From Parcubacteria bacterium GBS-2 (lineage in GTDB: Bacteria > Patescibacteriota > Minisyncoccia > Minisyncoccales > GBS-2), in NCBI GenBank assembly GCA_001443025.1, contig LEKP01000004.1:27560-91559 (forward strand): a DNA stretch of 64,000 nucleotides, given 5' to 3'. The translations under genes were made by a program, and so were the position numbers. Positions 1 through 60,913 of the stretch are shown here, piece after piece. Numbering within the stretch: the stretch's first letter is position 1; the number at the start of each line of letters is the position of its first letter. The notes below the pieces were generated by a model. That model worked only from the letters and a program-made list of their open reading frames with translations, ran no database searches and was not told where the DNA came from.

Positions 1-1314
1 AAAACTGAAAAGAACATTTTAGAAGCAATCGAGTTTGCAAAAAGGTCAAAAGGAAGGTTTCTCTTGGGTGAGATTTTGCCAATAGTAAAAGAGGTTTATG
101 AAAAATTAAAGAATTTAAAAGAAGTTGAAAGGATAGATGTTGTAGGTTCAATTAGAAGAATGAAGGAAACGATTGGGGATGTTGACTTTTTAGTGATTTC
201 AAAAAACCCAGAGCCTATCATGGACTTTTTTGTTTCTCTTCCAGGTGTGATTAAAATTTGGGGGAAAGGAAATACAAAAGCTTCAGTAAGAATGAGGGAA
301 GGTTTTGATATGGATATTAGAGTTTTACCAAAGAGATCCTACGGTGCTGCATTACAATATTTTACCGGTTCAAAAGAGCACAACATAGCTTTGAGAAAAA
401 TTGCTATTGAGAAAGGGTTAAAACTTTCAGAATACGGGCTTTTTAAAGGACCTGAAATGATTGCCGGAGAAGATGAAAAAGAGATTTATGAAAAGTTAGG
501 AATGGACTGGATTCCACCAGAATTAAGAGAAGATAGAGGAGAAATTGAAGCAGCCCTAAATCACAAACTTCCAAAAATCATCGATTACAAAGACATCAAA
601 GGAGACTTGCACGTTCATTCAAAATGGGACGGAGGAAAAAATTCAATAGAAGAAATTGCAGAATATGCAATTAAAATGGGTTATGAATACGTTGGAATCG
701 CAGATCACACCAAGTTTTTGAAAATTGAGCATGGATTGGATGAGAAAAAACTAAGAGAAAGGAATAAAGAAATCGATAAATTAAATACGCAATACGCAAT
801 ACGAAATACGAAATTCCGAATTCTAAAAGGGTGCGAAGCAAACATTTTACCAGATGGGAAAATTGACCTCGATGATGAGTGCTTAAAAGAACAAGATTTT
901 GTGATTGCTGGAGTTCATTCAAAATTTAAAATGTCAAGAGAAGAAATGACAGAAAGAATCATTCGAGCAATGAAAAATCCAAACGTTGATATTATTTCTC
1001 ATCCAACAGGAAGGTTAATTCAAAAAAGAGATGAATACGAGATAGATTTTGATAAAATTTTAAGAGTTGCAAAAGAGACTGGAACGATTTTAGAAATTAA
1101 CTCTTATCCTGAAAGATTAGATTTGAACGATCTTAATATCAAAAAAGCAAAAGAAATGGGAGTGAAAATGGTAATTAACACTGATGCCCACCATGTAGAC
1201 CAAATGAGGTTTATCGAGCTAGGAATTGCTCAAGCAAGGCGGGGTTGGGCTGAAAAAGAAGATATTATAAATTGTTGGTCATTGGAAAAGTTGTTAAAAT
1301 TCCTTAAAAAGTAA
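1..1314 (+). CDS. polX: DNA polymerase X family protein with C-terminal PHP domain; the 5' end runs off the window
   Basis: Frame 1 is open from base 1, with no stop before the Met at 64. It has the GDVDFLV nucleotidyltransferase aspartates, followed by PHP-type metal-ligand motifs HVHSKWDGG, IADH, GVHS, SHPTGR and NTDAHH. Confidence 0.85.
   Translation, partial: KTEKNILEAIEFAKRSKGRFLLGEILPIVKEVYEKLKNLKEVERIDVVGSIRRMKETIGDVDFLVISKNPEPIMDFFVSLPGVIKIWGKGNTKASVRMREGFDMDIRVLPKRSYGAALQYFTGSKEHNIALRKIAIEKGLKLSEYGLFKGPEMIAGEDEKEIYEKLGMDWIPPELREDRGEIEAALNHKLPKIIDYKDIKGDLHVHSKWDGGKNSIEEIAEYAIKMGYEYVGIADHTKFLKIEHGLDEKKLRERNKEIDKLNTQYAIRNTKFRILKGCEANILPDGKIDLDDECLKEQDFVIAGVHSKFKMSREEMTERIIRAMKNPNVDIISHPTGRLIQKRDEYEIDFDKILRVAKETGTILEINSYPERLDLNDLNIKKAKEMGVKMVINTDAHHVDQMRFIELGIAQARRGWAEKEDIINCWSLEKLLKFLKK
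784..825 (+). repeat. Heptanucleotide-periodic tract inside polX
   Basis: AATACGC AATACGC AATACGA AATACGA AATTCCG AATTCTA. 42 nt, in-frame, encodes NTQYAIRNTKFRIL. Confidence 0.85.
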
Positions 1315-2797: not shown

Positions 2798-2804
2798 AAA
2801 CTTT

Positions 2805-3120: not shown

Positions 3121-3205
3121 CTAGCCACCCAGCAAGCCACCCCCCAGCACCCAGAAAACCAGCTAACCAGCACCCAGAAAACCAGATAACCAGCTAACCA
3201 GCAAA
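3121..3205 (-). repeat. CCAG-periodic (7-8 nt) spacer between the smpB stop and the tmRNA 5' end
   Basis: The plus strand reads cacccag|aaaaccag|ctaaccag|cacccag|aaaaccag|ataaccag|ctaaccag. The 15-mer cacccagaaaaccag occurs twice (3148-3162, 3171-3185). The tract is much more C-rich than its surroundings. Confidence 0.8.
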
Positions 3206-3686: not shown

Positions 3687-5405
3687 TTGATGAAAGAAAA
3701 AATTAAAAAAACCCTCGAAGATTCAGTTAAGACTCTTTTCCCCGGCATAAAAATTCAAAAATTTCAAATTGAGCACCCAGAGAGAAAAGAGCTAGGAGAT
3801 TACTCGACAAATTTAGCTTTTTTAATTGCTAAAGAGTTAAAAGAAAAACCGATTGAAATAGCAAATCGAATCGCAACCTCGGTTAAGAAAGAAAAAATCT
3901 TTGAAAGAGTTGAAGTTAAAGAACCTGGTTTTATAAATTTTTTCTTTTCTTTAGATTTTTTCTTTAAAGAGTTAAAAAAGATTTTTAAAAAGAAAGAAAA
4001 TTACGGAAAAAGCAAAATTGGAAAAGGAAAAACAGTTATAATTGATTACTCTTCGCCAAACATTGCAAAACCTTTTGGAATCGGACATTTAAGATCCACA
4101 ATCATTGGCCAAGCCCTCTACAACCTTTACAAATTCCTAGGCTATAAAGTTATCGGGGACAATCATTTGGGAGATTGGGGAACCCAATTTGGAAAATTAA
4201 TCTTTGCAATAAAAAAATGGGGAAAAAAGAAAATTGATGATTATTCAGTTAATGAGTTAGAGGAGCTTTACGTGAAATTTCATAAAGAGGCAGAAAAAAA
4301 CCCTCAATTGGAAGAGGAAGGAAGGAAATGGTTTAAAAAATTAGAAGAGGGCGAAAGAGAAGCGAGGAAAATTTGGAAAACTTTAGTTAAAATCTCCTTA
4401 AAGGAATTTGAAAGAATTTATAATCTTTTGGGGGTTAAATTTGATGTAGTTTTGGGAGAGAGCTTTTATGAACCGATGCTAAAAGAAATAATCGAAGAAT
4501 TGAAAAAGAAAAAAATTGCAAAAGAAAGTCAGGGAGCGCTAATAATTGAATTTCCAAATAATGAATTCCCTCCAGTAATTGTTCAAAAATCTGATGGGAC
4601 GACAACTTATTTCACAAGAGATTTAGCAACAATAAAATACAGACTGAAAAGATGGAATCCAGATTTGATAATTTATGAAGTTGGAGTAGATCAGAAATTG
4701 CATTTTCAGCAACTTTTCAAGACAGTAGAGATTTTAAGATGGACTAAAAAAACAAAGTTCGTTCACGTTGCACATGGTTTGTATAGGACCAAAACTGGAA
4801 AATTCTCCACAAGAAAAGGAGAAACTGTCCATTTAGAAGATGTATTAAATGAGGCAATTGAAAGAGCAAGAGAAATCATTGAAAAGTCTGAAACCTCTCG
4901 GGGTTTAACAGAAAAGGAAAAAGAAAAAATTTCCAAAATTGTTGGGATTGGAGCAGTAAAATATAATGATCTTTCTCAGCACCCATCAAAAGACATAGTT
5001 TTTGATTGGGGGAAAGTTTTGAATTTGAAAGGAAATTCCGCTCCTTATTTACAATACACTTTTGTGAGATGCCAGAGCGTTTTGAGGAAGGCTAAAAAAT
5101 CACAAATTGAAAATTGTAAATTGCGAATCGAAAAGTTAAAGAAAGAAGAGATTGAGATTTTAAGAGAGATTTATAAGTTCCCAGAAATAGTCCAAGATGC
5201 AGCAGAAAAATTTTCTCCAAATTTGATTTGTAACTTTGTTTTTGAGTTAGCTAGAAATTATAACTTTTTTTACGATATATACCCTATTTTAAAGGCAGAG
5301 GACAAAGAAATAAAAAATTTTAGACTTCTTTTAACAAAGGCGGTTGCGCAAATTATCCAGAATTCATTATTTCTTTTAGGAATTGAAGTTCCAAAGAGAA
5401 TGTAA
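3687..5405 (+). CDS. argS: Arginyl-tRNA synthetase
   Basis: IDYSSPNIAKPFGIGHLRST (HIGH region), DGTTTYFTRDLA, and a C-terminal DALR-type anticodon-binding region ending in M. The start is probably the ATG at 3690. Confidence 0.95.
   Translation: MMKEKIKKTLEDSVKTLFPGIKIQKFQIEHPERKELGDYSTNLAFLIAKELKEKPIEIANRIATSVKKEKIFERVEVKEPGFINFFFSLDFFFKELKKIFKKKENYGKSKIGKGKTVIIDYSSPNIAKPFGIGHLRSTIIGQALYNLYKFLGYKVIGDNHLGDWGTQFGKLIFAIKKWGKKKIDDYSVNELEELYVKFHKEAEKNPQLEEEGRKWFKKLEEGEREARKIWKTLVKISLKEFERIYNLLGVKFDVVLGESFYEPMLKEIIEELKKKKIAKESQGALIIEFPNNEFPPVIVQKSDGTTTYFTRDLATIKYRLKRWNPDLIIYEVGVDQKLHFQQLFKTVEILRWTKKTKFVHVAHGLYRTKTGKFSTRKGETVHLEDVLNEAIERAREIIEKSETSRGLTEKEKEKISKIVGIGAVKYNDLSQHPSKDIVFDWGKVLNLKGNSAPYLQYTFVRCQSVLRKAKKSQIENCKLRIEKLKKEEIEILREIYKFPEIVQDAAEKFSPNLICNFVFELARNYNFFYDIYPILKAEDKEIKNFRLLLTKAVAQIIQNSLFLLGIEVPKRM
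5102..5136 (+). repeat. Heptanucleotide-periodic tract inside argS
   Basis: ACAAATT GAAAATT GTAAATT GCGAATC GAAAAGT, encoding QIENCKLRIEK. 19/23 identical to the leuS tract. Confidence 0.8.
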
Positions 5406-6429: not shown

Positions 6430-7386
6430 ATGAGGAGAGAATTTGCTTATTTACTATTCATTAAAAATTTAATTAGCTTTTCTCCTCGACAGCTGGAAGG
6501 CGAACAAAAAGCGGGTGATTTCATTATTTCTTTTTTGGAAAAGTTTAAATTTCAATATAAACTGCAATATTTTTGGACAGAAGTTCCAAAAGTAGAAAAA
6601 GAAATTTTAATAGCTGATGGAAAGAAAATTGCTTGTAAAGGAACTTCTTTTGTTTCTGGAAAAGTAAGGGATAAAAACTATTTAATTAGTTCTTTAATTC
6701 CCTCGCGCTTTTTTCTTGATAAGTCAAATATAAATTTTAACCCAAAATCTCCAGGAATTTCTCTTTCTAATTTTTATTTTGCTCCAGCGATTGCAGTTTG
6801 TAGGGGTGATTTAAATTTGATATTAAAAGCAGAAAAGATCGAAGGAGAAGTGAGAGTGAAACCGGTAAGGTACAAGGCAAGAAACATTTTAGTGGGTAAT
6901 TTAAGAAATCCAAAGGTAATTTGTTTCGCTCATTACGACAGTATTGGAAAAGGAGCAGTTGATAATGCATCGGGAGTAGCAGTACTTTTGAGTACGCTTA
7001 TCTCTCATCCCTTTGTTTTAAAGGAAAATTTATTCGTTTTTTCGGCCAACGAAGAACTTTCCTATGATAAACCCACTTATTGGGGACATGGTTTCCGAGC
7101 TTTTGAAGAAGAATTTTTAAAAACTATGAAAAAAACTAAAAAAATTGTAGTGGTCGATTGTGTTGGCAATGGGAAAGCAAAAATTCTAAAAGACGAAGAA
7201 ATGATCTATTTAGCCTTCCCTATCAAAAATGCAAAGAAATTAAAAAACAAAATATCAATTCTTACAGGCGACCTTGAAAAATTAATGAGCGTTTATCACA
7301 GTGATTTAGATAATCTTAAACAAATTAGCGAAAAATATCTCAGAGAGGCAGAGAGGAAACTTTTAATGTTAATTAAACTGGGATAA
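6430..7386 (+). CDS. M28-family (aminopeptidase-like) zinc peptidase
   Basis: CFAHYDSIGKGAVDNASGVAVLL (His/Asp metal ligands), FSANEELS (Glu-Glu), VVDCVGNG and VYHSDLD together fit the M28 co-catalytic zinc ligand pattern. Confidence 0.65.
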   Translation: MRREFAYLLFIKNLISFSPRQLEGEQKAGDFIISFLEKFKFQYKLQYFWTEVPKVEKEILIADGKKIACKGTSFVSGKVRDKNYLISSLIPSRFFLDKSNINFNPKSPGISLSNFYFAPAIAVCRGDLNLILKAEKIEGEVRVKPVRYKARNILVGNLRNPKVICFAHYDSIGKGAVDNASGVAVLLSTLISHPFVLKENLFVFSANEELSYDKPTYWGHGFRAFEEEFLKTMKKTKKIVVVDCVGNGKAKILKDEEMIYLAFPIKNAKKLKNKISILTGDLEKLMSVYHSDLDNLKQISEKYLREAERKLLMLIKLG

Positions 7387-7407: not shown

Positions 7408-10400
7408 ATGGAAATTAATTTTCCAAAACTTGAAGAGAAAATTTTGAGATTTTGGAAGAAAAATAGGATTTTCGAGAAATCGATTGAAAAGAGGAGAAAA
7501 GATTTTGTATTTTATGAAGGTCCTCCGACTGCTAATGCGAAGCCGGGATTACATCATGTATTGAGTAGAGTCTTCAAAGATATAGTTTGCCGTTATAAAA
7601 CAATGGCAGGCTTTAGAGTTTTAAGAAAAGCAGGATGGGATACTCATGGATTGCCAGTTGAATTAGAAATAGAAAAGAAAATTGGAACAAAAACAAAAAA
7701 GGATATTGAAAAATTTGGAATAGAAAAATTCAATTTTTTGTGCAAAAAATCGGTATGGGAATACAAAAAAGATTGGGAAAAATTAACTGAAAGAATTGGT
7801 TTTTGGCTAGATTTGAAAAATCCTTACATTACTTATGAACCGGAATACATTGAATCAGTTTGGTTTTTATTGAAGAAAATTTATGAAAAGGGGCTATTGT
7901 ACGAAGAACTTAAAGTTTCACCCTATTGTCCTCGATGCCAGACAATTTTGTCTTCTCATGAAGTTGCCCAGGGATACAAAAGAATAAAAGAACCTGCAAT
8001 TTATGTAAAATTTAGAGTTTTAAATCCAGAGTACAAAAATTGTTCTCTTTTAGTTTGGACGACAACTCCTTGGACATTGCCAGGAAATGTTGCAATAGCA
8101 GTAAATCCAAATTTTGATTATTTATTTTTAGAAAAAGAGGGAGAAATTTTGATTTTGGCAAAAGAAAGGACAAAGGCATTGGGAATTGAAGGAAAGGTTT
8201 TAAAAGAGGTAAAGGGGAAAGATTTAATTGGTTTGAGATACCAGTCAGTTTTTGATTTTTATCAACCAGATTTTGAAAAAGAAAGAATTTGGGAGGTTTT
8301 GGGAGCAGAGTTTGTATCTTTGGAAGAGGGTACAGGATTGGTTCATATTGCTCCTGCTTTTGGTGAAGAAGATATGGAATTAATAAAAACTCAAAACTCA
8401 AAATTCAAAACTCAAAATCAGAAGAAATTTCCGGTGATTTTGAATGTTGATGAGGAAGGAAGGTTCAAATTAGAGGTTAAAAAGTTTGCGGGCCTTTTTG
8501 TGAAAGATGCAGATTCCCTGATAATTCAAGATCTGAAAGAAAGAGGACTTTTGTTTAAAGAAGAATTATATGAACACGATTATCCATTTTGTTGGAGATG
8601 TAAAACCCCTCTTTTGTATTATGCGAAAAGAAGTTGGTTTATAAGAATGAGTCAAGTAAAAGAAGATTTAATTAAAAACAACGAAAAAATAAATTGGATT
8701 CCAGAGCACATAAAAGAAGGAAGATTCGGTGAATGGTTGAGAGAAATAAAAGATTGGGCTTTATCAAGAGAAAGATATTGGGGTACTCCTTTACCAGTTT
8801 GGAAATGCGCAAACTGTAACAATATAGAAGTAATTGGGTCGATTAAAGAATTGATCTTAAAAAACTCTTCAAAAAACGTTTATTATCTTTTCAGGCACGG
8901 ACACTCTTTAAGACAGGAAATGAAAGTTATCTCTTGTTGGCCAGAAGAAAAACCTCTCACTTTAACTGAAAAAGGAAAAGAAGAGGTAAAAAGAGCAGCG
9001 CTTGAGTTAAAGAAGGAAAAAATTGATTTGATTTTTTCCTCAGATTTAATGAGAACAAAACAAACTGCTGAAATTTTAGCCAAAGAGTTAAAGGTAAGAG
9101 TTATTTTCGATAAGCGATTAAGGGAATTTAATGTTGGAATTTTTAACGGAAAGGATCCTTCTTTGTTTTGGGAGTACATTAAGGACAAAAAAGATCCGCT
9201 TTTTGTAAAAGCGCCGAGAGGAGAAAGCTTGGCTGATGTAAGAAAAAGAATGTATGAATTTTTGAGAAATAAAGAAAAGAAGTTTTCTGGGAAAAAAATT
9301 CTTCTTGTATCTCACGAACTTCCCTTAACTATTCTAGAAGGAACCTTAAAAGGACTTTCGTTGGAAGAAATCTTGGAAAAAAGAAGAAGCGGTAAATTTA
9401 AAACCTTAAAAACTGCTCAATGGAAGAAAGTAGAATTCAAAAGTTTACCTTTCAATGAAAAAGGGGAAATTGATCTTCACCGTCCTTTCATTGATGAAGT
9501 TTCTTTTAAATGTTCAGTTTGTCAAGGCGAAATGAAACGAACTCCAGAAGTAATCGATTGTTGGTTTGATTCTGGAGCAATGCCTTTTGCTCAGTACCAC
9601 TGGCCGTTTTCTGAAATTCCAAAATCCAAGCTCCAAACTCAAAAATTAAAACCGCCAAAGTTATTCCCCGCAGATTACATTTGTGAAGGAATAGATCAAA
9701 CAAGGGGTTGGTTTTATACTCTTTTGGCTATTTCCACCTTAATGGGATTTGGCCCTTCTTATAAAAACGTTATTTCTTTAGGGCACGTTTTGGATGAAAA
9801 AGGGGAAAAAATGTCAAAATCAAAGGGAAATGTGGTTGATCCTTGGTATGTTATTCAGAAGTATGGCACCGAAGCAACAAGATGGTATTTTTTCACTATT
9901 AATCAACCAGGAAATCCCAAACTTTTTTCTGAAAAAGATGTGGCTGAAAGTTTTAAAAGATTTATTTTAACTTTTTGGAACTGTTATTTATTCTTTGATA
10001 CTTACGGAGAAAAGAAAGTTATCGCTACTTCAAGATCGAAGAATGTTTTAGACAGATGGATCATTTCGGAGTTAGAGAGTCTCATTCAAGAAGTATCTGA
10101 AAGTTTGGAAAAATACCACATTACCAAAGCAGCAAGAGTGATTGAAAAATTTGTGGTTGATGATCTTTCGTTGTGGTATATCCGTAGATCAAGAAAAAGA
10201 TTTCAGAAACCAAAAACTCAAAGAGAACTAAAAGAGGCTTCCCAAACTTTGAAATTTGTCTTTTTGAATTTATCAAAAATTTTAGCCCCGTTTTTGCCAT
10301 TTCTATCGGAATTTATTTATCAAAAGATTAAAGGATACAATTTTAAAAGTTCAAATTCTGTCCATTTGGAAAATTGGCCTAAAGTTAATGAAAAACTGAT

Positions 10401-20344: not shown

Positions 20345-22822
20345 ATGAAATACTCTCCTCAAAAAATTGAAAGAAAGTGGCAAAAAATTTGGGAGAGAAA
20401 GAAAATTTATAAAACCAAAGATGTCCAAAAAAAGTCAAAGTTTTATTGTTTGGACATGTTTCCCTATCCTTCAGGGGCAGGTCTTCATGTTGGCCATTTG
20501 CGAGGTTACATTGCTACCGATGTAATTTCGAGGATGAAAATGATGCAAGGTTTTAACGTTTTGCATCCAATGGGTTGGGATGCTTTTGGATTGCCAGCTG
20601 AAAACTATGCAATTCAACACAAAATTCACCCCGAAGTTGCAGTAAGGCGGAACATCAAAAATTTTAAAAAACAACTTTCAAAAATTGGATTCACTTACGA
20701 TTGGGAAAGGGAAATTAATACTACTGACCCTACTTATTACAAATGGACCCAATGGATTTTTTTACAGCTGTTTAAAGCAGGTTTAGTTTATGAAAGCTTC
20801 GAACCTATAAATTGGTGTCCTTCTTGCAAAACGGGTTTGGCAAACGAAGATCTAGAAAGGGGAAGATGCGAAAGATGTGGATCAAGGGTTGAAAAAAGAC
20901 CGCTTAGGCAATGGGTAATAAAAATTACAAAGTATGCTGATAGGCTTTTAAAAGATTTAAAGTATTTGAATTGGCCAGAACACATTGTAAAAATGCAAAA
21001 AGATTGGATTGGGAAATCTGAGGGAGTTGAATTTGAAATGAAGGTTTTCAAAGGAAAAAGAGAACTCAAAGAAAAAATCAAAATTTTCACAACCAGGATC
21101 GATACTGTTTTCGGAATGACTTATGTCGTTTTAGCTCCAGAAAATAAGATTTTGGAAAAGATAAAAGATAAAATTGAAAACTGGAAGGAAATTGAAAAGT
21201 ACAAAAAAGAAGTAGAGGCAAAACTGGTTGAAGAAAGAGAAAAAGAGAAAACTGGAATTAAAATTAAAGGAATTTTAGCCGAAAATCCTTTTAATAAAGA
21301 AAAGGTTCCAATTTTTGTCTCAGAGTATGTCCTGGCAGATTATGCAACAGGATCGGTAATGGGAGTCCCTGCCCATGATAAAAGAGATTTTGAATTTGCA
21401 AAAAAATTCAATCTGCCAATAAGGAAAGTAATTGAGGGAGGGCAAAAAGAAGGGGAATGTTATGAAGGGGAAGGAATTTTGGTAAATTCTGGAGAGTTTT
21501 CAGGATTGAACTCAACTCAGGCAAAAGAGAAAATGGCTCAATGGTTAAAAGAAAGAAAAATTGGAGGAAAAAAGGTTTATTACAAAATCAGAGATTGGGT
21601 TTTTGCAAGACAAAGATACTGGGGAGAGCCATTTCCATTAGTTTTTTGCGAAAATTGTAAAAAGAAAATTTTAGAAGGGAAATATAAAAAAGGAGAATTC
21701 AACAAAGGAGAATTATTAAACCCTGGCTGGATTTGCGTTCCAGAAAAAGAGCTTCCGGTTAAGCTTCCAAAAGTTAAATATTATGAGCCCACTGGGACTG
21801 GAGAATCCCCTCTAGCAAAAATTGAAAAATGGGTAAAAACAAAATGTCCAAAATGCGGTTTTGTTGCAAGAAGGGAAACAAACACAATGCCACAGTGGGC
21901 AGGATCTTGTTGGTACTATTTGAGATATATTGATCCTAAGAATAAGAGAGAATTAATTTCAAAGAAAAAAGAAAAGTATTGGATGCCAGTTGATTTATAT
22001 GTTGGGGGAGTAGAACACGCCACTAGACATTTAATCTACGCCAGATTTTGGCATAAATTCTTGTACGATATTGGAGTAATTTCAACAAAAGAGCCCTTTC
22101 TGAGATTAAGATCGGTTGGCGTGATTTTGGGCCCAGATGGAAGAAAAATGTCAAAAAGATATGGTAACGTTGTTAATCCAGACGATGTTTGTAAAAAACT
22201 CGGAGCAGATTCCCTGAGAGTTTACGAAATGTTTATGGGACCTTTTGATCAAGAAATCACTTGGCAAGAAAGAGGAGTAGTTGGAGCTAGGAGATTTTTA
22301 GAAAAGATTTGGAAATTAAAATCAAAGATTGTGAATTGTAAATTGCAAATTGATAAAAGAAAGGAGATTTTGAAAATCTTACATCAAACCATAAAGAAAG
22401 TAACTGAAGATATTGAAACTTTTAAATTTAATACCGCAATTTCTCAATTAATGGTTTGTGCAAATAGAATTGAAAAAGAAGAGAAAATAGAAAAAGAAAT
22501 TTTTGAAAACTATTTGAAACTTTTAGCACCATTTGCTCCTCATATTGCAGAAGAAATCTGGCAAATTTTAGGACATAAAAAGTCGATATTTTTAAGTCCG
22601 TGGCCAAAATGGAATAAGAAGTTGGTGAAAGAAGAAATGATTACTTTAATAATTCAAGTTAATGGAAAGGTGAGAGATAAAATTGAAGTCGAAGCTAGCG
22701 TTTCAGAAGAAAAGGCGAAAGAATTAGCCTTTTCTAGTGAAAAAATCAAAAAGTGGATAGAAGGAAAAGAAATAAAAAAAGTCGTTTTTGTTCCTGGGAA
22801 ATTGATTAACCTAGTTGTATGA
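20345..22822 (+). CDS. leuS: Leucyl-tRNA synthetase
   Basis: FPYPSGAGLHVGHLRGY, zinc motifs CPSC...CERCGS, the CP1 editing domain, and GRKMSKRYGN. Confidence 0.96.
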   Translation: MKYSPQKIERKWQKIWERKKIYKTKDVQKKSKFYCLDMFPYPSGAGLHVGHLRGYIATDVISRMKMMQGFNVLHPMGWDAFGLPAENYAIQHKIHPEVAVRRNIKNFKKQLSKIGFTYDWEREINTTDPTYYKWTQWIFLQLFKAGLVYESFEPINWCPSCKTGLANEDLERGRCERCGSRVEKRPLRQWVIKITKYADRLLKDLKYLNWPEHIVKMQKDWIGKSEGVEFEMKVFKGKRELKEKIKIFTTRIDTVFGMTYVVLAPENKILEKIKDKIENWKEIEKYKKEVEAKLVEEREKEKTGIKIKGILAENPFNKEKVPIFVSEYVLADYATGSVMGVPAHDKRDFEFAKKFNLPIRKVIEGGQKEGECYEGEGILVNSGEFSGLNSTQAKEKMAQWLKERKIGGKKVYYKIRDWVFARQRYWGEPFPLVFCENCKKKILEGKYKKGEFNKGELLNPGWICVPEKELPVKLPKVKYYEPTGTGESPLAKIEKWVKTKCPKCGFVARRETNTMPQWAGSCWYYLRYIDPKNKRELISKKKEKYWMPVDLYVGGVEHATRHLIYARFWHKFLYDIGVISTKEPFLRLRSVGVILGPDGRKMSKRYGNVVNPDDVCKKLGADSLRVYEMFMGPFDQEITWQERGVVGARRFLEKIWKLKSKIVNCKLQIDKRKEILKILHQTIKKVTEDIETFKFNTAISQLMVCANRIEKEEKIEKEIFENYLKLLAPFAPHIAEEIWQILGHKKSIFLSPWPKWNKKLVKEEMITLIIQVNGKVRDKIEVEASVSEEKAKELAFSSEKIKKWIEGKEIKKVVFVPGKLINLVV
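22325..22359 (+). repeat. Heptanucleotide-periodic tract inside leuS
   Basis: AAGATTG TGAATTG TAAATTG CAAATTG ATAAAAG, encoding KIVNCKLQIDK. Confidence 0.8.
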
Positions 22823-25006: not shown

Positions 25007-26722
25007 ATGAAGGAAATTCTTTTAAACAAATCTGGTAAAAAAATTATCTTGTTAGGGAATGAAGCAGTTTGTCGGGGAGCCATTGAAGCTGGTGTTGACT
25101 TTGTTTCAACTTATCCTGGAACCCCTGCCTCAGAAATTGGTAATACCTTTTGGCAAATTAAAGAAGATTTCAAAAAAATAAATCCAAAATTTCATTTTGA
25201 ATTTTCAACTAATGAAAAGGTAGCGATGGAAGCAGCAGCTGGGGCTGCTATTTCTGGCTTTAAATCATTGGTTGCAATGAAGAATTTTGGCTTGAACGTT
25301 GCTTCAGATTTTTTATGCACTCTAATGTACTCTGGTATAGAGGGATCGATGGTAATTTTTGTTGCCGACGATCCTTCTTGCTGGAGCTCTGCTCAGTCTG
25401 AACAAAACACTAGATTTTATTCTTTGATGGCTCACATTCCAACTTTAGAACCTTCCGAACCTCAAGAATTCAAAGATTTTACAAAGTTTGCTTTCAACCT
25501 CTCTGCCCAATTTAAAATTCCAGTAATGATTAGATCTACTACCAGAGCCTCTCATCAATCAGGACCAGTCACCTTAGGGGAAATTCCAAATTCCAAATTC
25601 CAAATTCCAAAATTTGTTAAAGATCCAAAAAAATTCTCAACGATGCCTCCAAGGGTCTTGGAAATGAAAAAAGAGCTTTTTGAAAAAATTGAGAAAATTA
25701 AAAAACAATTTGAAAAATCTAATTTAAACAAGATAATTTACGGAAATTCAAGAGAAAAACTCGGAATTTTAACTTCAGGGGTTTCTTTCTTGTATGTAAT
25801 GGAGGCATTAAAGAAATTGAATTTAAAATTGCCGGTTTTAAAATTGGGATTTATCTATCCTTTACCAGAAAGAAAAATATTGAATTTTTTGAAAAAATTA
25901 AAATCTGTTTTAATTGTCGAAGAACTAGAGCCTTATTTAGAAAGGGAAATTGCAATTTTGGCAAAAAAAGAAAATTTAAAGATCAAAATCTTTGGGAAAG
26001 GAGAAAAAATTGAGGGAGGAAGAATTTGGAAAGAGAGAAAGGCAATTTTACCTCAAATTGGAGAGTTAAAACCTGAATATGTTGAGATCGCGATTTCAAA
26101 AATTTTGAACAAAAAACCATCCTTCAACTATCAATTGCATTTGAAAAAATTCGAAAAATTAAAAATACCAGCAAGACCTCCAATTTTGTGTCCAGGATGT
26201 CCCTATTGGGCAGTTGTTAATGCGATCAAAAAAGTTGTCGATCTTCAGAAAGTGATTTTTGGTGGAGAAATTGGTTGCTATATGCTTTTTTCTCACAAAG
26301 TAATTAACCTTCAAGATTATCTATATTGTATGGGTTCTTCGACTAGTATTGCCCACGGAATTTCAAAAACATCCAAACAAAAAGTCATCACTTTCATTGG
26401 CGATTCATCTTTTTTCCATGCTGGGATTCCTGCATTGATTAATACTGTTTTTAATCAATCAAATCCTTTAATCATTATTCTTGAAAATCAGACGACCGCG
26501 ATGACCGGCCATCAACCCCATCCTGGGGTAGGAGACGGTCGGGTAGTCAAAGTTGAAGAAATTGTTAGGGCTTGTGGAATAAAGAATGTTAAAGTAATAG
26601 ATCAAGTTAAAAATCCAGAAGAATTTGAGAAAGGATTAAAGGAGTTTTTAGAAAAAGACGAAGCTTCAGTAATTATTGCTAGGCACATTTGCGCTCTATT
26701 AGAAAAAAAGAAAAAAACATGA
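25007..26722 (+). CDS. iorA: Indolepyruvate (2-oxoacid):ferredoxin oxidoreductase, alpha subunit-like
   Basis: GNEAVCRGAIEAGVDFVSTYPGTPASEI, the TPP-binding region GDSSFFHAG...ENQTTAMTGHQP, and CPGCPY. Confidence 0.8.
   Translation: MKEILLNKSGKKIILLGNEAVCRGAIEAGVDFVSTYPGTPASEIGNTFWQIKEDFKKINPKFHFEFSTNEKVAMEAAAGAAISGFKSLVAMKNFGLNVASDFLCTLMYSGIEGSMVIFVADDPSCWSSAQSEQNTRFYSLMAHIPTLEPSEPQEFKDFTKFAFNLSAQFKIPVMIRSTTRASHQSGPVTLGEIPNSKFQIPKFVKDPKKFSTMPPRVLEMKKELFEKIEKIKKQFEKSNLNKIIYGNSREKLGILTSGVSFLYVMEALKKLNLKLPVLKLGFIYPLPERKILNFLKKLKSVLIVEELEPYLEREIAILAKKENLKIKIFGKGEKIEGGRIWKERKAILPQIGELKPEYVEIAISKILNKKPSFNYQLHLKKFEKLKIPARPPILCPGCPYWAVVNAIKKVVDLQKVIFGGEIGCYMLFSHKVINLQDYLYCMGSSTSIAHGISKTSKQKVITFIGDSSFFHAGIPALINTVFNQSNPLIIILENQTTAMTGHQPHPGVGDGRVVKVEEIVRACGIKNVKVIDQVKNPEEFEKGLKEFLEKDEASVIIARHICALLEKKKKT
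25582..25609 (+). repeat. Perfect (AATTCCA)x4 inside iorA
   Basis: Four exact tandem copies encoding IPNSKFQIP. The same 28-mer occurs at 48169-48196. Confidence 0.95.
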
Positions 26723-32630: not shown

Positions 32631-34670
32631 TTATTTTTTGAGATAATCACAATTTTTATTTGAACATTTTATTTTTTTGTTTTCTTTTATTAAAAGTGAT
32701 TCACATCTTGGACATTTTTCTTCAGTAGGTTTTTCCCACAAAACAAAATCACATTTTGGATAATTTGAGCAACCCCAAAAGACTTTCCCTTTTTTGCTTT
32801 TTCTTTTCATCATTTCTCCCTTTTTGCATTTTGGGCATAAAATTCCAGTTGAGTTTTCCAAATCAAAAGTGTATTTACACTTTGGATAATTAGAACAAGC
32901 TAAAAACCTCCCGTATTTTGAAACTCTAATTAAAAGTTGAGCTCCGCACTTTGGGCATTTCTTTTCAGTTTTTTCCAAAATTCCAGCTCCTTTTATTTCT
33001 TTGTATTTTTTATTTAAATTTTCATTAAATGGTATATAAAATTCTTTTAAAGTTTCTACCCAATTCTTTTGACCATTGGCAATTTTATCCAAATCATCCT
33101 CCATTTTTGCGGTAAAACTTATATCAACAATTTCTGGAAAGTGTTTTACCAAAAGATCATTCACTAAAATTCCTACCGCAGTCGGATAAAACCTCTTTTT
33201 CTCATCTTTTTTAACATAATTTCTCTCTTGGATTGTTGCCAAAATGGGAGCGTAGGTTGAAGGCCTTCCAATTCCGTGTTTTTCAAGTTCTTTTATTAAA
33301 GTTGCCTCAGTATATCTTGGTGGAGGTTGGGTGAAATGCTGCAAGGGTAGAATTTTTACCACTTCTAAAATTTCTCCCTTTTCTAATTCTGGTAATTCTT
33401 CCTCCTCAAACTTCATTGGATAAACCTTTAAGAATCCATCAAACTTTAAAATTTGCCCTCTTGCCAAAAACCCATAATTTTTTGCTAAAATTTCAACTTC
33501 TGTTTTGTCAAAAATTGCTTGCGTCATTTGGGAAGCCAAAAACCTTCTCCAAATTAAATCATAAAGCTTCAATTGCTGTTCATTCAATTTTTCACTTAAA
33601 ACTTCAGGGGTTTTTTCAACATCTGTTGGCCTAATTGCTTCATGGGCTTCTTGAGCAACCTTAGATTTTGTTTTATAAACTCTTTGCTGGTAATAATTTT
33701 TACCGAAATTCTTCAGAATAAAATCCTCTGCCATTTTTAAGGCCAGCTCAGATAAATTCAAAGAATCCGTCCTATGGTAAGTAATGTATCCCATTTCATA
33801 AATTTGCTGGGCAATCTGCATTGTTTTTTCTGCAGACCAAGAAAATTTTTGCCAGGCAGTTTGTTGCATTGTTGAGGTTGTGAAAGGCTCTGGTGGATTT
33901 CTCTTTGCCTCTTTTCTTTCAATTTTTAAAACTTTAAATTTCGCATCTTTTAAATCCTCAACAATTTTTTTCGCCTCTTTTTCATTCTTTATTGCGAATT
34001 GATCCAACTTTTTTCCATCTTTCTTTACCAATACTGCCTTAAATTCCCCTTGGGATTTGGAATTTGGTGCTTGGAATTTCTTTAATGTTGCTTCTATCGT
34101 CCAGTATTCTTTCGGTTTAAAATTTTGAATCTCTCTTTCTCTTTCAACAATCAATCTTAAAGCAACAGACTGAACCCTTCCAGCAGAAAGTCCCTTTGCT
34201 ACCTTTCTCCAAAGTAGGGGAGAAAGCTTGTAACCTACGATTCTGTCTAAAATTCTTCTTGCTTGTTGAGCATTGACCAAATTCATGTCGATTTTTCTTG
34301 GATTTTTTAACGCCTCTTTTATTGCCTGTTCAGTTATTTCATGAAAAACAATTCTCCAATAAGGCTTTTTCTTTCCGAGTTTTAAAAGACATGCTAAGTG
34401 ATAGGCAATTGCCTCCCCCTCCCTATCAGGATCAGTAGACAAAATTACCAATTTTGCCTTTTTTGCCTCTTTTTCAATCTCTTTTATCCTTTCTTTTGCT
34501 CTTGGAGTAATTACATAAGTCGGTTTAAAGTTATTTTTAATATCAACTCCAAATTTGTGTTCTGGCAAATCTCTTACATGACCAAAAGAAGCAACGATTT
34601 TGAATTCCTTACCCAAGAACCTACTGATGGTTTTGGCCTTAGTTGGACTTTCAACGATTACCAATTGCAT
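32631..34670 (-). CDS. topA: DNA topoisomerase I with C-terminal Cys4 zinc ribbons
   Basis: MQLVIVESPTKAKTI (Toprim), DPDREGEAIA, ITYHRTDS (active-site Tyr region), and three CPKC/CPRC zinc-ribbon repeats. Confidence 0.96.
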   Translation of the reverse strand: MQLVIVESPTKAKTISRFLGKEFKIVASFGHVRDLPEHKFGVDIKNNFKPTYVITPRAKERIKEIEKEAKKAKLVILSTDPDREGEAIAYHLACLLKLGKKKPYWRIVFHEITEQAIKEALKNPRKIDMNLVNAQQARRILDRIVGYKLSPLLWRKVAKGLSAGRVQSVALRLIVEREREIQNFKPKEYWTIEATLKKFQAPNSKSQGEFKAVLVKKDGKKLDQFAIKNEKEAKKIVEDLKDAKFKVLKIERKEAKRNPPEPFTTSTMQQTAWQKFSWSAEKTMQIAQQIYEMGYITYHRTDSLNLSELALKMAEDFILKNFGKNYYQQRVYKTKSKVAQEAHEAIRPTDVEKTPEVLSEKLNEQQLKLYDLIWRRFLASQMTQAIFDKTEVEILAKNYGFLARGQILKFDGFLKVYPMKFEEEELPELEKGEILEVVKILPLQHFTQPPPRYTEATLIKELEKHGIGRPSTYAPILATIQERNYVKKDEKKRFYPTAVGILVNDLLVKHFPEIVDISFTAKMEDDLDKIANGQKNWVETLKEFYIPFNENLNKKYKEIKGAGILEKTEKKCPKCGAQLLIRVSKYGRFLACSNYPKCKYTFDLENSTGILCPKCKKGEMMKRKSKKGKVFWGCSNYPKCDFVLWEKPTEEKCPRCESLLIKENKKIKCSNKNCDYLKK
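34052..34079 (-). repeat. Heptanucleotide-periodic tract inside topA
   Basis: The coding strand reads AAATTCC AAGCACC AAATTCC AAATCCC, encoding FQAPNSKSQ. Confidence 0.8.
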
Positions 34671-39477: not shown

Positions 39478-39565
39478 CTGCGAGTGGCAAGGGATGCTCA
39501 CCTCCCATCCCTTGTCTTGAATGCGGGGAGGTCCGAGTGACTAACCTCGCGGCTCGCAGTTTTTT
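39478..39565 (+). ncRNA. Candidate small structured RNA of unknown class, with its own promoter and terminator
   Basis: TTGACA at 39441-39446, a 17-nt spacer, and TGtTATTTT (extended -10). Closing helix CTGCGAG (39478-39484)/CTCGCAG (39553-39559) followed by T6. Internal perfect 9-bp hairpin CAAGGGATG-ctcacctcc-CATCCCTTG. A second GC-rich hairpin GCGGGGAGGTC...GACTAACCTCGC. The loop ACCTCC is complementary to the downstream GGAGGT. The element is GC-rich in an AT-rich genome. Confidence 0.55.
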
Positions 39566-40136
39566 ATTTGTTAAATTCACTCATTGACTTCTCAGCTCCT
39601 TCTTTTATTGAAATCTCAATTGCTTTACACGTTAAATCAATTACCTTCTTTAAAATTTTTTCCTCTTTTTTACTAAATTTTTGAAGCACTAAATTTTTCT
39701 TATTGCTCTTTGCCCTATTGTTGGCTGTTCCAATTCCAACTCTAACCCTAACAAAATCTTTTGTTCCAATTTCATCAATTATTGATTGAACTCCTTTGTG
39801 GCCAGCAGATCCTCTGCCAAAAGAAATTTTAATTTTCCCAAATGGAATGTCCAAATCATCGTGAACCACTATTAAATTTTCACTTTTCAATTTCCAATTT
39901 TCAATTAAAAACTTTACCGATTTACCAGAATTGTTCATAAAAGTTTGAGGTTTTGCTAGAACAATCTTTTTTTCTCCAATTTTCTTTTCAGAAATCATTG
40001 CTAAAAACTCTTTTTTCAGTTTAAATTTTGGGAATTTTTTCTTCTTTGCAAACTCATCTAAAACCATAAATCCAAGGTTATGCCTCGTTTTTTCAAACTT
40101 TCTTCCTGGATTTCCAAGACCGACGATTAACTTCAT
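39564..40136 (-). CDS. pth: Peptidyl-tRNA hydrolase
   Basis: MKLIVGLGNPG..., TRHNLGF, and VVHDDLDIPFGKIK. Confidence 0.95.
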   Translation of the reverse strand: MKLIVGLGNPGRKFEKTRHNLGFMVLDEFAKKKKFPKFKLKKEFLAMISEKKIGEKKIVLAKPQTFMNNSGKSVKFLIENWKLKSENLIVVHDDLDIPFGKIKISFGRGSAGHKGVQSIIDEIGTKDFVRVRVGIGTANNRAKSNKKNLVLQKFSKKEEKILKKVIDLTCKAIEISIKEGAEKSMSEFNK

Positions 40137-47802: not shown

Positions 47803-48797
47803 GAAAAATTTTAAAATATTTTTCCATTTTTCTTTCTTTTTTCATTATTTTTTTCTTTTGTTTTTTCTTCGTGGGGAAGCCAAAACCTGCAGAAAAAATT
47901 GAGTGGGGAGTAGTTTTTTCCCAAAAACACTCTAAACTTTTAGGATTGGACTGGAGAGAAAATTATCTTGCGATTTTGGATGATTTGAAAGTTAAAAATT
48001 TAAAAATCATTGTCCATTGGGATTTGATAGAACCGAAAGAAAATGAATACTTTTTTGAAGATCTCGATTGGCAAATAAAAGAAGCAGAAGAGAAGAATGC
48101 AAAGTTAATTTTGGTGATTGGAATGAAAACAGGAAGATGGCCAGAATGTCACATTCCAGAATGGGTAAAATTCCAAATTCCAAATTCCAAATTCCAAAAT
48201 TATGAAAAATTTCTCTTGGATTACCTAAAAACAGTGATTGAAAGATACAAAAATTCAAAAGCAATTTGGGCATGGCAATTAGAAAACGAGCCATTTTTTC
48301 CTTTTGGAGAATGCCCAAAAATTAAAAAAGATTTAGTAAAGAAAGAGATAGAATTAGTAAGATCTTTAGATTCAAGGCCAATAATTTTCACAGACAGCGG
48401 AGAATTTTCTCTTTGGATAAACGCAGCAAAATTCGGAGATATTGTGGGAACAACTTTACATAGAAAAGTTTATTTCAAGGAAATCAAAAAATATATCACT
48501 TATCCATTTCCCCCTGTTTATTACTGGCGAAAAGCAAAGTTGATTGATTTTTTCTTTGGCAAAAAAGTGATCATCGCAGAACTTCAGGCAGAACCTTGGT
48601 GCAAAAATTTGATTTACAATTGTCCTTTGGAGGAGCAAAAAATTACAATGAATTTTGAACAGTTTAAAAAGAATGTTAATTTTGCAAGAAATACCGGAAT
48701 AGATACAATTTACTTTTGGGGAGTGGAATGGTGGTATTGGATGAAAGAAAAAGGAGAAGATCCAAGGTTTTGGGAAAATGTAAAAACCTTTTTTTAA
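47799..48797 (+). CDS. Membrane-anchored clan GH-A (GH5-like) glycoside hydrolase
   Basis: N-terminal TM helix. WAWQLENEPF (Asn-Glu acid/base motif) and ELQAEPW (candidate nucleophile strand) fit a TIM-barrel pattern. Confidence 0.6.
   Translation: MRKILKYFSIFLSFFIIFFFCFFFVGKPKPAEKIEWGVVFSQKHSKLLGLDWRENYLAILDDLKVKNLKIIVHWDLIEPKENEYFFEDLDWQIKEAEEKNAKLILVIGMKTGRWPECHIPEWVKFQIPNSKFQNYEKFLLDYLKTVIERYKNSKAIWAWQLENEPFFPFGECPKIKKDLVKKEIELVRSLDSRPIIFTDSGEFSLWINAAKFGDIVGTTLHRKVYFKEIKKYITYPFPPVYYWRKAKLIDFFFGKKVIIAELQAEPWCKNLIYNCPLEEQKITMNFEQFKKNVNFARNTGIDTIYFWGVEWWYWMKEKGEDPRFWENVKTFF
48169..48196 (+). repeat. Perfect (AATTCCA)x4 inside the GH5-like gene
   Basis: Four exact tandem copies encoding KFQIPNSKFQ. 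Identical to 25582-25609. Confidence 0.95.
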
Positions 48798-58833: not shown

Positions 58834-60096
58834 ATGAACCAAGCAGTAATTTTATCTGCGGGAGAATCCTCCAGATTTTGGCCTTTAAACTACCAACATA
58901 AAAGCCTTCAAAAGATAATGGGTAAACCTTTAATTTGGTACACTATCGAAGGATTAAGAAGATCAAAGGTAAAAGAAGTCATTGTTGTTCAGTCCCAAAA
59001 AAGAGATGTAGAGAGAGAACTAGAGAAGTACAAATTTCCAAATCTAAAGCTCAAATATGTAATCCAAAAAGAACCAAAAGGGATGGGAAATGGATTGTGG
59101 CAGGCAAGGGAGTTATTAAAAGGAAGATTTTTAGTTTTGAATGCAGAGAGAGTTGATGTTGAGGAAATAGTGAAAAGTTTACAAAATCAAAAACAAAACT
59201 TAAAAACCAAAAGCATCCTCTTTGGCCAAAAAACAAAAAACCCACAACTTTACGGAATAGCGAAAATAAAAGGAGACAGAATCTTGGAGATAGTGGAGAA
59301 GCCAGAAAAAGGAAAAGAACCCTCTGACATCAGAGTAGTGGGAGTTTATTTTTTAGAGCCGAGGTTCTTTGAAATATATCAAAAAGTAAAAAAACACATG
59401 TACGATTTTGAAGAAGCCCTTTCAATCTACATGAAAAAAAACGATGTTAAAATTGTGATTTTAAAAAGGGAAGAAAAAGACACTCCCTCTTTAAAATATC
59501 CTTGGCATCTTTTTGAAGTCGAAAAATACCTTTTTAATAAATTTTTGAAGGAAAAAATTGAAAAAACTGCTGAAATTTCAAAAAAAGCAATAATTCAAGG
59601 AAAAGTTTACATTGGAGAAAACACTAAAATTTTTGAAGGAGCAATCATCAAAGGACCGTGCTACATTGGTAAAGATTGCATAGTTGGAAACTACTCTTTA
59701 ATTAGAGAATATGTCAATTTAGAAGATAAAGTTTTAATCGGGGCATATGCGGAGATAGTTCGATCGATTTTCCAAGAAAATGTTCATTGCCATTCAGGTT
59801 ACTTTGGAGATTCAATTATAGGGGAAGGATGTAGGTTTGGAGCGGGAACAATTACCGCAAACGTGAGAATTGATCGGGGAGAGATAAAACCGATTGTTAA
59901 AGGGAAAAAAGTAAATTCTGGTTTAACACATTTGGGGGTAATAATTGGCAAAAATACTAAAACTGGAATCCACTGCTCTTTTATGCCAGGAAAATTAATC
60001 GGTTCAAATTGCATAATCGGTCCTAGGTCGGTAGTTTTTGAAAATGTCCCAGACAACACTGTTTTCTTTACCGAATTTAAGCAAATATCAACCTAA
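58834..60096 (+). CDS. Sugar-1-phosphate nucleotidyltransferase with a C-terminal left-handed beta-helix (GlmU-like, archaeal type)
   Basis: [15 protein letters not shown]...KPL (nucleotidyltransferase G-loop), and hexapeptide repeats in the last 170 aa ([26 protein letters not shown]...). Confidence 0.8.
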
Positions 60097-60846: not shown

Positions 60847-60913
60847 TCGCGCAAATGGGCAAAAGCCCAAAAGGTCGGCGCGATAAAAAACAATAAGCAA
60901 TAAACAAAGAACA

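Follow-up and report, generated by a model that had tools for sequence, protein, structure and literature searches.

Short tandem arrays of heptanucleotides within housekeeping genes of a Parcubacteria bacterium

The window analyzed here is a stretch of 64,000 nt (33% G+C, about 92% coding) from contig LEKP01000004.1 of Parcubacteria bacterium GBS-2, and the names of homologues of its genes point to Patescibacteria (Parcubacteria group). Inside its housekeeping genes there are about ten arrays of a tandemly repeated 7-nt unit, each comprising about 4.4 units (4.0-4.6 units in Tandem Repeats Finder (TRF) and our own period scans, with which arrays were called), and these arrays are the subject of this study. 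Two of them are perfect and share the unit AAATTCC. One is located in an open reading frame (ORF) with POR_N and TPP_enzyme_C domains (25007-26722, + strand), which sources name indolepyruvate ferredoxin oxidoreductase alpha (iorA). The other is located in ORF 47799-48797 (+), which shows weak or faint matches to the glycoside hydrolase families GH42, GH5, and GH10 and whose product is a membrane-anchored, TIM-barrel glycosidase-like protein. A degenerate array of the same type is found in topA. These three were noted in the first-pass annotation, which missed the rest of the roughly ten, and their coordinates are as follows:

25581..25611, + strand: perfect AAATTCC array of 4.4 units in the iorA-like ORF 25007-26722, encoding the peptide EIPNSKFQIPK
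48168..48198, + strand: perfect AAATTCC array of 4.4 units in the glycosidase-like ORF 47799-48797, encoding KFQIPNSKFQ(N), residues 124-135
34050..34079, - strand: degenerate AAATTCC array in the topA ORF 32631-34670 (-), encoding FQAPNSKSQ

The 28-mer AATTCCAAATTCCAAATTCCAAATTCCA is present exactly at 25582-25609 and at 48169-48196, both on the + strand, and belongs to a perfect period-7 run of 31 nt at each locus (25581-25611 and 48168-48198; 4.4 copies and 100% match according to TRF). The identical arrays in iorA and the glycosidase-like gene are therefore located where the first-pass annotation had placed them and encode the peptides that it had given, and the degenerate topA copy, which reads AAATTCC AAGCACC AAATTCC AAATCCC AA on the coding strand, could be confirmed as well. 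Identity between the two perfect loci spans 34 nt, consisting of AAATTCC four times and then AAAATT; the flanks diverge beyond, and nothing is common to the two copies past the periodic run. As the codon phase differs (GAA ATT CCA... in iorA, AAA TTC CAA... in the glycosidase-like gene) and the peptides are EIPNSKFQIPK and KFQIPNSKFQN, respectively, the identity exists at the level of DNA and not at the level of the peptide. Both arrays match at third positions despite their different phases, which bears out the DNA-level cause that had been proposed for them.

The iorA array sits in a linker between the conserved motifs 'LG' and 'FVKDP' that is variable in 120 of 120 homologues (about 10-13 aa), and it adds only about one residue there; among about 25 close iorA homologues the length of the linker is constant. 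In the AlphaFold model of the glycosidase-like protein, residues 124-135 are coil and have the lowest predicted local distance difference test (pLDDT) values of the protein (72-80; mean 91.7).

The other arrays of the window are distributed over further ORFs, among them those for the isoleucyl-, leucyl-, and arginyl-tRNA synthetases (IleRS, LeuRS, and ArgRS), which have one or two array sites each, with units differing by lineage:

783..814, + strand: AAATACG/CAATACG array of 4.6 units in ORF 64-1314, with an AAATTCC unit directly after it
5104..5134, + strand: AAATTGA-type array in the ArgRS-like ORF 3687-5405, with TGT in place of the in-frame TGA that the unit would give
8386..8417, + strand: AAAACTC array of 4.6 units with one mismatch, IleRS site 1, encoding KTQNSKFKTQN
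9614..9644, + strand: degenerate AAATTCC-type array (AAATTCC AAAATCC AAGCTCC AAACTCA AAA), site 2 of the IleRS ORF 7408-10950
22328..22357, + strand: AAATTGT/AAATTGC-type array, site 2 of the LeuRS ORF 20345-22822
39866..39906, - strand: AAATTGA-type array of about five units in the Pth-like ORF 39564-40136 (-), with TGG where the unit would give TGA
59183..59212, + strand: weak, AAAATCA-like period-7 array (70% match) in ORF 58834-60096, the weakest of all and one that could be due to chance

That these arrays exceed chance is evident within the window. AAATTCC-type 14-mers with at most one mismatch occur nine times against 0.33 expected, and none of 100 shuffles reaches nine. A strict filter for period-7 arrays retains seven in the window, whereas 200 codon-order shuffles contain 0.18 on average and none of them reaches seven; periods 4, 5, 8, 10, and 11 are at the level of the shuffles. 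The codon-order shuffles lead us to reject a by-product of codon usage, and an assembly artefact is rejected as well, since the arrays recur in independent assemblies and in strain variants.

For comparison, 620 kb of related Patescibacteria loci were inspected, and period 7 dominates in them: at a score of 40 or more, there are 51 arrays of period 7 but only 6 of period 8 and 6 of period 9. Among the 98 TRF rows of period 7 in this set, 18 are exactly 31 nt long and 32 fall between 30 and 33 nt, a second cluster exists at 54-62 nt, and one array extends to 75 nt. Distinct arrays lie mostly inside long ORFs (28/32, about 88%), which differs from the predominantly intergenic location described in the literature; 12 of these 28 measure exactly 31 nt, 21 measure 30-33 nt, and in 25 the coding strand has more A than T. 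Many arrays of the relatives are perfect and employ other units, i.e., AAATCCA, AAAGTCA, AAACTCA, AATTTCC, CAATTAT, AATCAGC, AAGAATC, AAAATGC, or TTCATCG. In L136 (609-664) a perfect 4.4-unit block stands beside decayed units, and we count this as an intermediate expected under slippage.

When individual sites are followed through the relatives, the same loops are found to carry arrays, but often of unrelated units. At the iorA site, the array is identical to that of the window in L156, an independent assembly of 99% identity, and in L126 (87% amino-acid identity), and strain-level protein variants (P0361, P0121, and P0368) keep it too. There is one mismatch in L001, and L129 presents a 2+2 arrangement of AAATTCC and AAATCCC. 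L163, L127, L002, and L128 have GGAAGTT arrays instead, and more distant relatives have other units or no array. In the glycosidase-like loop, about one third of 120 homologues contain heptamer-coded peptides of many unit types and the others none; L178 shows (AAATCCC)3 followed by AAATTCC, and L177 shows AAATCTC alternating with AAATTTC. The arrays of the window, L177, and L178 have the same length at this site, and L176, the closest relative that lacks an array, is shorter by 5 aa.

In topA, the array constitutes an insertion of 7-8 aa relative to the orthologues of L130 and L146, and subtraction of 21 nt gives the array-less length; L002 possesses a GGAAGAA/GGAAGTA array at this site and L141 an independent AAAATCA array of about eight units. 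At IleRS site 2, relatives are either in a state with about 4.4 units or in one with about 1.4 units, and L175 has a perfect (AAAAATC)4. At IleRS site 1, heptamer-coded peptides recur in homologues whose identity ranges from 60 to 100%, the array of L175 consists of 4.9 perfect AAAATGC units, and array-less homologues are about 10 aa shorter. At the ArgRS site at 5104, GGAAG-type arrays occur in L174 and L175 and AAAGTCA arrays in L172 and L173. At LeuRS site 2, L126 and L163 are of the same type as the window, L001, L002, and L127 have GGAAGAA/GGAAGTA at the same offset, and L130 has no array. The Pth array shows no length difference from the orthologues of L167 and L141 and overlies ancestral residues without any insertion. 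Of the lineage-specific insertions that the first-pass annotation had expected from orthologue alignments, topA and IleRS site 2 are clean cases, whereas the arrays of iorA (+1 aa) and Pth (0) are not net insertions.

Exact differences of 21 nt, i.e., of three units, were found at IleRS site 2 in two independent sister pairs, L172/L173 and L174/L175. The sequence of L175 (GCTCAAAATCAAAAATCAAAAATCAAAAATCAAAAATTG) equals that of L174 (GCTCAAGATCAAAAATTG) plus three perfect AAAAATC units, and L173 equals L172 plus 21 nt. Indels of 7 aa also separate the proteins P0265 and P0282 as well as P0248 and P0243. Single-unit length differences were not encountered among the compared relatives, as expected inside ORFs. 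Such exact 21-nt steps are what slippage filtered by the reading frame is expected to leave behind, and the rule that steps of three units preserve the frame, which the first-pass annotation had deduced from the unit length, is hereby seen at work between relatives.

The edges of the arrays sit on conserved codons that already hold the start of the unit, AAATT or GGAAG. AAATTCC arrays begin at the GAA-ATT of G-E-I and end at the AAA-TTT of K-F, and GGAAGTT arrays begin at the GGG-AAG-TT of G-K-F/L; the conserved codons concerned are G-E/K-I and K-F in iorA and K-F/L in topA and the glycosidase-like gene. Edges at such positions argue for local seeds and not for import. Depending on the lineage, the TGA phase of AAATTGA arrays reads TGT, TGG, GGC, or GTC, and GGAAGTT arrays have TCG, TCC, or TTG where their unit would give TGG (Trp).

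We favor the explanation, with a probability of roughly 0.55, that the arrays are locally seeded heptanucleotide simple sequence repeats (SSRs) that arise by slipped misalignment and are filtered by the reading frame and by the tolerance of the protein. It draws on the period-7 excess, the 31-nt mode, the exact 21-nt steps, the location in tolerant loops, the local anchoring, and the turnover of units, all of which are observed. One 7-nt unit with some 3 nt of microhomology behind it (typically AAAnnnnAAA) would serve as a seed. Seeds of this kind are plentiful in this AT-rich coding DNA, and they would be extended when the nascent strand re-anneals out of register. In an essential ORF the frame would be kept only by changes of three units (21 nt, 7 codons), such that the visible states should be about 1.4, 4.4, and 7.4 units, corresponding to 10, 31, and 52 nt. 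Among these, the 31-nt state of 4.4 copies ("seed + 3 units") should be the commonest, and the 31-nt mode is explained in this way by one unit, about 3 nt of microhomology, and three further units. Arrays would survive only in loops or linkers that tolerate any hydrophilic peptide and only in an orientation that gives an acceptable, stop-free peptide, and AAATTGA-like units would have to keep their TGA phase broken. Misalignment between neighboring units may lead to templated substitution without any change in length, to which we would attribute the concerted change of units in the glycosidase-like arrays of the window, L177, and L178, and gains and losses of 21 nt may occur occasionally. Together, these two processes would maintain the periodicity, allow a whole array to be taken over by a variant unit, and turn old arrays into seeds of new ones, with the consequence that the same loops carry arrays in many lineages. 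The two identical copies in the window would then be independent products of similar AAATT seeds and not two insertions of one element. The enzymology, namely why the unit is 7 nt long, how several units slip in one event, and how substitution is templated, is something we infer.

Homologous recombination between related populations might in addition shuffle array alleles. L126 and L163 are 96.4% identical in leuS and 90.6% in iorA and have different array types in iorA, which suggests that recombination accounts for part of the mosaic of array types in close relatives; a scenario in which arrays were converted to GGAAG repeatedly and independently to give this mosaic was dropped on account of these identities.

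A number of observations weigh against locally seeded slippage. A first group concerns conservation, which was ranked in sliding windows of 30 nt per gene. The topA array is the most conserved window of its gene (1 of 2017) in a comparison of the window, L001, L127, and L163, in which 23.5% of the sites differ, and the iorA array lies at the 1.5th percentile of variability in its gene. Such conservation would be expected of a constraint on the nucleotides rather than of a neutral tract that slips fast. Variability of the leuS and GGAAGTT arrays is average or higher, which makes conservation bimodal over the arrays. Likewise, copy-number polymorphism of the focal arrays was not found among about 25 close homologues.

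A second group concerns length and the nature of the unit. The net length added is small in iorA (+1 aa), Pth (0), ArgRS site A (+2 aa), and the glycosidase-like gene (+3-5 aa), and simple expansion alone cannot explain these arrays; clean insertions are seen only in topA (+7-8 aa) and at IleRS site 2 (+7 aa). In the N-terminal domain of ArgRS, L172 has TAGGTTC in 4.9 units (2618-2651) and L173 has AAATCTC in 4.4 units (3466-3496) at the same site and with the same length; the two are 87% identical in the adjacent IleRS gene, and the window, L174, and L175, which possess no array there, are only 2 aa shorter. At the iorA site, AAATTCC and GGAAGTT are swapped wholesale at constant length in sister lineages. 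AAATTCC, moreover, occupies only rank 85 (0.18%) among coding heptamers, yet it is the unit of about 4 of the 10 arrays in the window, such that the choice of unit is out of line with background frequency. Finally, GGAAGnn units (GGAAGTT, GGAAGAA, and GGAAGTA) occur at 4-5 loci of the sister clade, i.e., in iorA, leuS, topA, and dprA of L002 and in argS of L174 and L175:

L002: GGAAGnn-type arrays at 7081-7111, 10573-10598, 20373-20397, and 21164-21195
L175: GGAAGnn-type arrays at 345-382, 772-799, and 6850-6884
L174: GGAAGnn-type array at 4986-5012

At these loci the window has AAATTnn arrays in four cases and no detected array in dprA, and GGAAGnn looks like a unit family that is specific for the lineage and extends over unlinked sites. 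GGAAGTT was also considered as an inverted copy of AAATTCC; the reverse complement AACTTCC is one base off, which fits iorA but not leuS or argS, and the idea was dropped as a general rule. Close to the arrays of L175, a 638-aa protein with 23S_rRNA_IVP and bAvd domains (the fold of accessory proteins of diversity-generating retroelements) is encoded at 378-2294, an association that is positional.

A third group concerns the mechanism itself. To our knowledge, a gain of three copies in one event is not a documented common outcome, and single-unit intermediates in topA or in aminoacyl-tRNA synthetases would be lethal. The slippage model leaves the preference for 7 nt itself unexplained. In its simple form, the model also leaves unexplained a class of inserts that split arrays in distant relatives. 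These inserts are GC-rich, in frame, hairpin-forming, and 18-48 nt long, they sit in the middle of an array with about two units on each side, and they occupy the same hot spots in iorA (L004, L005, L149, and L153), in topA and leuS (L147), in the glycosidase-like gene (P0180), and in IleRS (P0287). Several contain mini-hairpins of the GCGAAGC type, and the core sequences differ between loci. In and beside the arrays of the window, such GC-rich hairpin cores were not found. The hairpin-split arrays are:

L004, 9129-9186
L005, about 560-640
L149, 10147-10199 (equal to L148, 554-606)
L153, 1816-1891
L147, in topA and leuS
P0180, P0287, P0067, P0110, and P0088, in homologues

In the same LeuRS loop that carries arrays elsewhere, leuS site 2 of L149 (within 7513-9994) has a GC-rich tandem repeat of 27 nt that encodes SLPEGRELR three times. 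Taken together, the points that slippage does not explain leave some limited room for a functional or 'written' element.

As an alternative, the arrays might be selected cis-acting nucleic-acid elements, which we regard as possible though unlikely. In that case, four tandem 7-nt sites would be read in DNA or RNA by a multimeric or multi-domain factor, for example a nucleoid, uptake, or regulatory protein or an RNA binder of the OB-fold or Csp/S1 type with one domain per heptamer, and selection would hold the periodicity and the copy number of about four while the unit co-evolves with its reader in each lineage. Csp proteins bind one heptamer each according to work cited in PMC4679880, and the preference for four units recurs in the intergenic GGGAATC arrays of Xanthomonas (PMC4692102). 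The conservation of the topA and iorA arrays speaks in the same direction, as does a run of 53 identical nt that covers the iorA array between the window and L126, two sequences whose second-longest identical run measures 26 nt and which agree at only 65% of third positions. The conservation test, though, was made post hoc on 6 arrays and few taxa, and the LeuRS and GGAAGTT arrays evolve at average or higher rates. A dedicated reader would also be consistent with the persistence of arrays at the same sites among homologues of 60-100% identity, with the retention of about 4.4 units when the unit is replaced, and with unit usage that is not proportional to heptamer frequency and comes in families per genome (AAATTCC and AAATTGA in the window, GGAAGnn at the sister-clade loci). 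Array-less orthologues, however, are frequent at every site, which makes the arrays dispensable, a common motif over the units (AAATTCC, AAAACTC, AAATACG, AAATTGA, CAATTAT, AATCAGC, TAGGTTC, and others) does not exist, and the encoded peptide accounts for the bias in orientation. A structured RNA or a known RNA family was rejected: the predicted fold of the array RNA has -7.1 kcal/mol (z = +1.3 versus shuffles) with no palindrome or secondary structure, and in an Rfam search of the window none of the arrays matched a covariance model. The unit is not self-complementary, and with a longest G run of 2, AAATTCC/GGAATTT falls short of the requirement for a G-quadruplex.

A more far-reaching variant, which we consider rather doubtful, is that the four-unit arrays of Patescibacteria are maintained, rewritable nucleic-acid elements in loops of essential genes. 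Selection or a dedicated templated process would keep their period and copy number constant, entire arrays at many loci of a lineage would switch to another unit (for example from AAATTnn to GGAAGnn), and the arrays would serve as landing sites for the GC-rich hairpin inserts. The misfits of the slippage model, i.e., constant-length replacement of units, shared unit families, conserved arrays, and hairpins in the middle of arrays, can be taken as hints of a heptamer reader or writer. If this were true, one might expect a trans-acting factor such as a binding protein, a repeat-synthesizing polymerase, or a reverse transcriptase, and this might at the same time account for the excess of 7-nt repeats that has long been noted in bacteria.

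It appears improbable that the arrays are footprints, targets, or ends of a small mobile or insertion-prone element whose fuller form would have a GC-rich hairpin core with two heptamers per side, the plain four-unit array representing the empty or excised site. The hairpin inserts at shared hot spots in distant relatives, the hairpins abutting AAATTCC arrays in L021, L033, L034, L049, and L114 from other lineages, the clean insertions in topA and IleRS, and the identical copies in two genes of the window would agree with such an element. Yet the arrays of the window contain or adjoin no hairpin core, the arrays of iorA and Pth are not insertions, inverted repeats and a recognizable target-site duplication are lacking, and the cores differ between loci, such that a single mobile family is not evident. 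The insertion or spread of a discrete element, which the first-pass annotation had favored, is likewise not supported, given the want of a common flank, array edges that fit local seeds, and units that vary by site, match the flanking conserved codons, and are unrelated at the same sites in relatives.

Contingency loci, in which single-unit slippage would switch genes off and on (phase variation), are very improbable here. Every single-unit change of a 7-nt unit shifts the frame, and in Haemophilus 7-bp repeats in the promoter drive switching of hmw adhesin expression (PMC8262952). The slippage-prone 7-nt unit is what both systems have in common; the hmw repeats are long, polymorphic between isolates, and regulatory, whereas those considered here are short (four units), fixed in number, and situated in essential ORFs. 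Their hosts are essential housekeeping genes (topA, IleRS, LeuRS, ArgRS, and Pth), and these, including iorA, are not surface, restriction-modification, or virulence genes. Strain-level variants and about 25 close homologues display no copy-number variation, and the length differences found are all multiples of 21 nt. Selection at the protein level for a peptide motif such as a flexible linker or a binding epitope, with similarity by convergence, is scarcely credible: although the arrays lie in surface loops or linkers and encode hydrophilic peptides, the DNA is identical including third positions where phases and peptides differ, and the same sites accept unrelated peptides in relatives.

Among known systems, the palindromic elements of Rickettsia (RPEs), to which the first-pass annotation had likened the arrays, are dispersed palindromes of roughly 100-150 bp whose copies have their sequence in common. 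The likeness consists in a DNA-level repeat in unrelated, often essential ORFs that is tolerated in surface loops. It does not extend further, since the arrays are 31 nt long, non-palindromic, and unstructured, as the fold described above indicates, have only the unit in common, with identity ending at 34 nt, and were apparently seeded locally. Coding repeats of Borgs have unit lengths divisible by three, whereas a 7-nt unit has to be added or lost three at a time for the frame to persist. Both represent recent perfect nucleotide repeats in ORFs that evolve fast and form low-complexity loops, those of Borgs giving rise to disordered regions in proteins (PMC9879509).

The class of heptamer repeats itself is known and widespread. 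As reported in PMC4679880 and PMC4692102, Mrazek (2007) found heptanucleotide repeats to be the most abundant class of long SSRs in most bacterial genomes and proposed an origin by polymerase slippage, and SSR units divisible by three are usual in ORFs (Mrazek et al., 2007, via PMC4679880). The statement of the first-pass annotation that such repeats are normally purged from coding DNA therefore applies as a general rule, but heptamers are over-represented in bacteria according to these citing papers and are common in the ORFs of this lineage. The bacterial long SSRs of Mrazek, Guo & Shah (2007), insofar as they are summarized there, resemble the present arrays in being short head-to-tail heptamers in excess over neighboring periods and scattered over phyla, with slippage as their proposed origin. 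They are, by the same summary, mainly intergenic, whereas here about 88% of the arrays lie in housekeeping ORFs, array length is quantized at 31 nt, and the same loops of a protein carry arrays in different lineages.

Intergenic GGGAATC and GGGGAYT heptamers of Xanthomonas and Nostoc (Rehm et al., 2015, PMC4692102), as well as cyanobacterial short tandemly repeated repetitive (STRR) sequences, share the G(n)A(m)T(k) type of unit, GGAATTT being the complement of AAATTCC. The Xanthomonas and Nostoc arrays also share the number of about four units, the occasional inverted pairs, and the variation in length and sequence at conserved positions in close relatives (PMC4692102). Those units, in contrast, are G-rich, capable of forming G-quadruplexes, and under-represented in coding DNA, whereas AAATTCC, which occurs in coding DNA here, is not capable of it. 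Similarly, TAACTGA repeats of Beggiatoaceae, Cyanobacteria, and Bacteroidetes (MacGregor, 2015, PMC4679880) consist of 2-6 tandem heptamers, occur in distant phyla, and adjoin arrays of other heptamers, and in both cases compatibility with coding depends on stops within the unit. TAACTGA repeats, however, contain stops, are situated just upstream of start codons, and have been proposed to be regulatory (PMC4679880), whereas the arrays studied here are stop-free and internal to ORFs. A literature search yielded no description of coding, frame-quantized heptamer arrays in essential genes of candidate-phyla bacteria.

The arrays offer a way to test the cause of the 7-nt repeat excess, which has been known since 2007 and for which there is no accepted explanation. 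Scarce intergenic DNA would force the repeats into essential ORFs, where the frame acts as a ruler and only three-unit events are visible, and comparative data could serve to measure how fast arrays expand, disappear, and convert their units. Both the quantum of 31 nt and the steps of exactly 21 nt speak for slippage as the origin. For the proteins of candidate phyla, the arrays are a source of rapid loop evolution and are likely behind low-complexity peptides of the 'KSKIQNP / KFQIPNS' type in annotations; they may also mislead assembly and gene calling through frameshifts.

The array (AAATTCC)3.4 was also sought in 185,579 species genomes (596 Gb), and among the matches listed there are Patescibacteria, Bacteroidota (including cultured Flavobacterium and Salinimicrobium), Acidobacteriota, Calditrichota, Nostocales, and others, with the AAATTCC arrays often adjoining arrays of other heptamers or forming inverted pairs. 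Horizontal spread was considered as a reading of this distribution and set aside as uninformative, because only about 2,300 cyclic heptamer classes exist, 596 Gb were scanned, and the neighbors are other units. The lengths of the perfect runs in these many-phyla loci are broad (24-37 nt) and neither support nor refute the idea of a frame filter, and ORF calling is unreliable in them because AAATTCC arrays have no stop codon in any of the six frames. In other lineages and phyla (L028 at about 3150-3260; L024, L035, L105, L115, and L116), (AAATTCC)n often faces an inverted (GGAATTT)n over a short loop, giving long hairpins that are in some cases followed by runs of T. In L125 (about 3575-3640), an AAATTCC array directly adjoins (CCCTAAA)n, which is the telomere unit of the plant type. 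The AAATTC contained in the unit fits the pattern of an RAATTY methylation site. Other conceivable readings are a molecular drive of the kind known from DNA uptake sequences, pausing at GGAAG arrays that resemble internal Shine-Dalgarno motifs, binding by Rho or Csp, and a relation to the footprint sizes of SSB.

A few further observations concern the window. Its sole period-7 array outside an ORF is AAACAAT-like (60888-60915, 76% match) and lies just upstream of ORF 60914-62689. The IleRS of the window (7408-10950) is a protein of 1180 aa that contains a PF00300 (His_Phos_1) histidine-phosphatase domain, an architecture present in 120 of the 120 Patescibacteria homologues listed. The sole Rfam match of the window is a transfer-messenger RNA (tmRNA) gene at 2802-3116 on the - strand (115.6 bits), which was missed by ARAGORN. 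Directly 5' of this gene, at 3144-3206, a C-rich tandem repeat of 23 nt (CCAGCACCCAGAAAACCAGATAA, 2.7 copies) is located in unusually GC-rich intergenic DNA.

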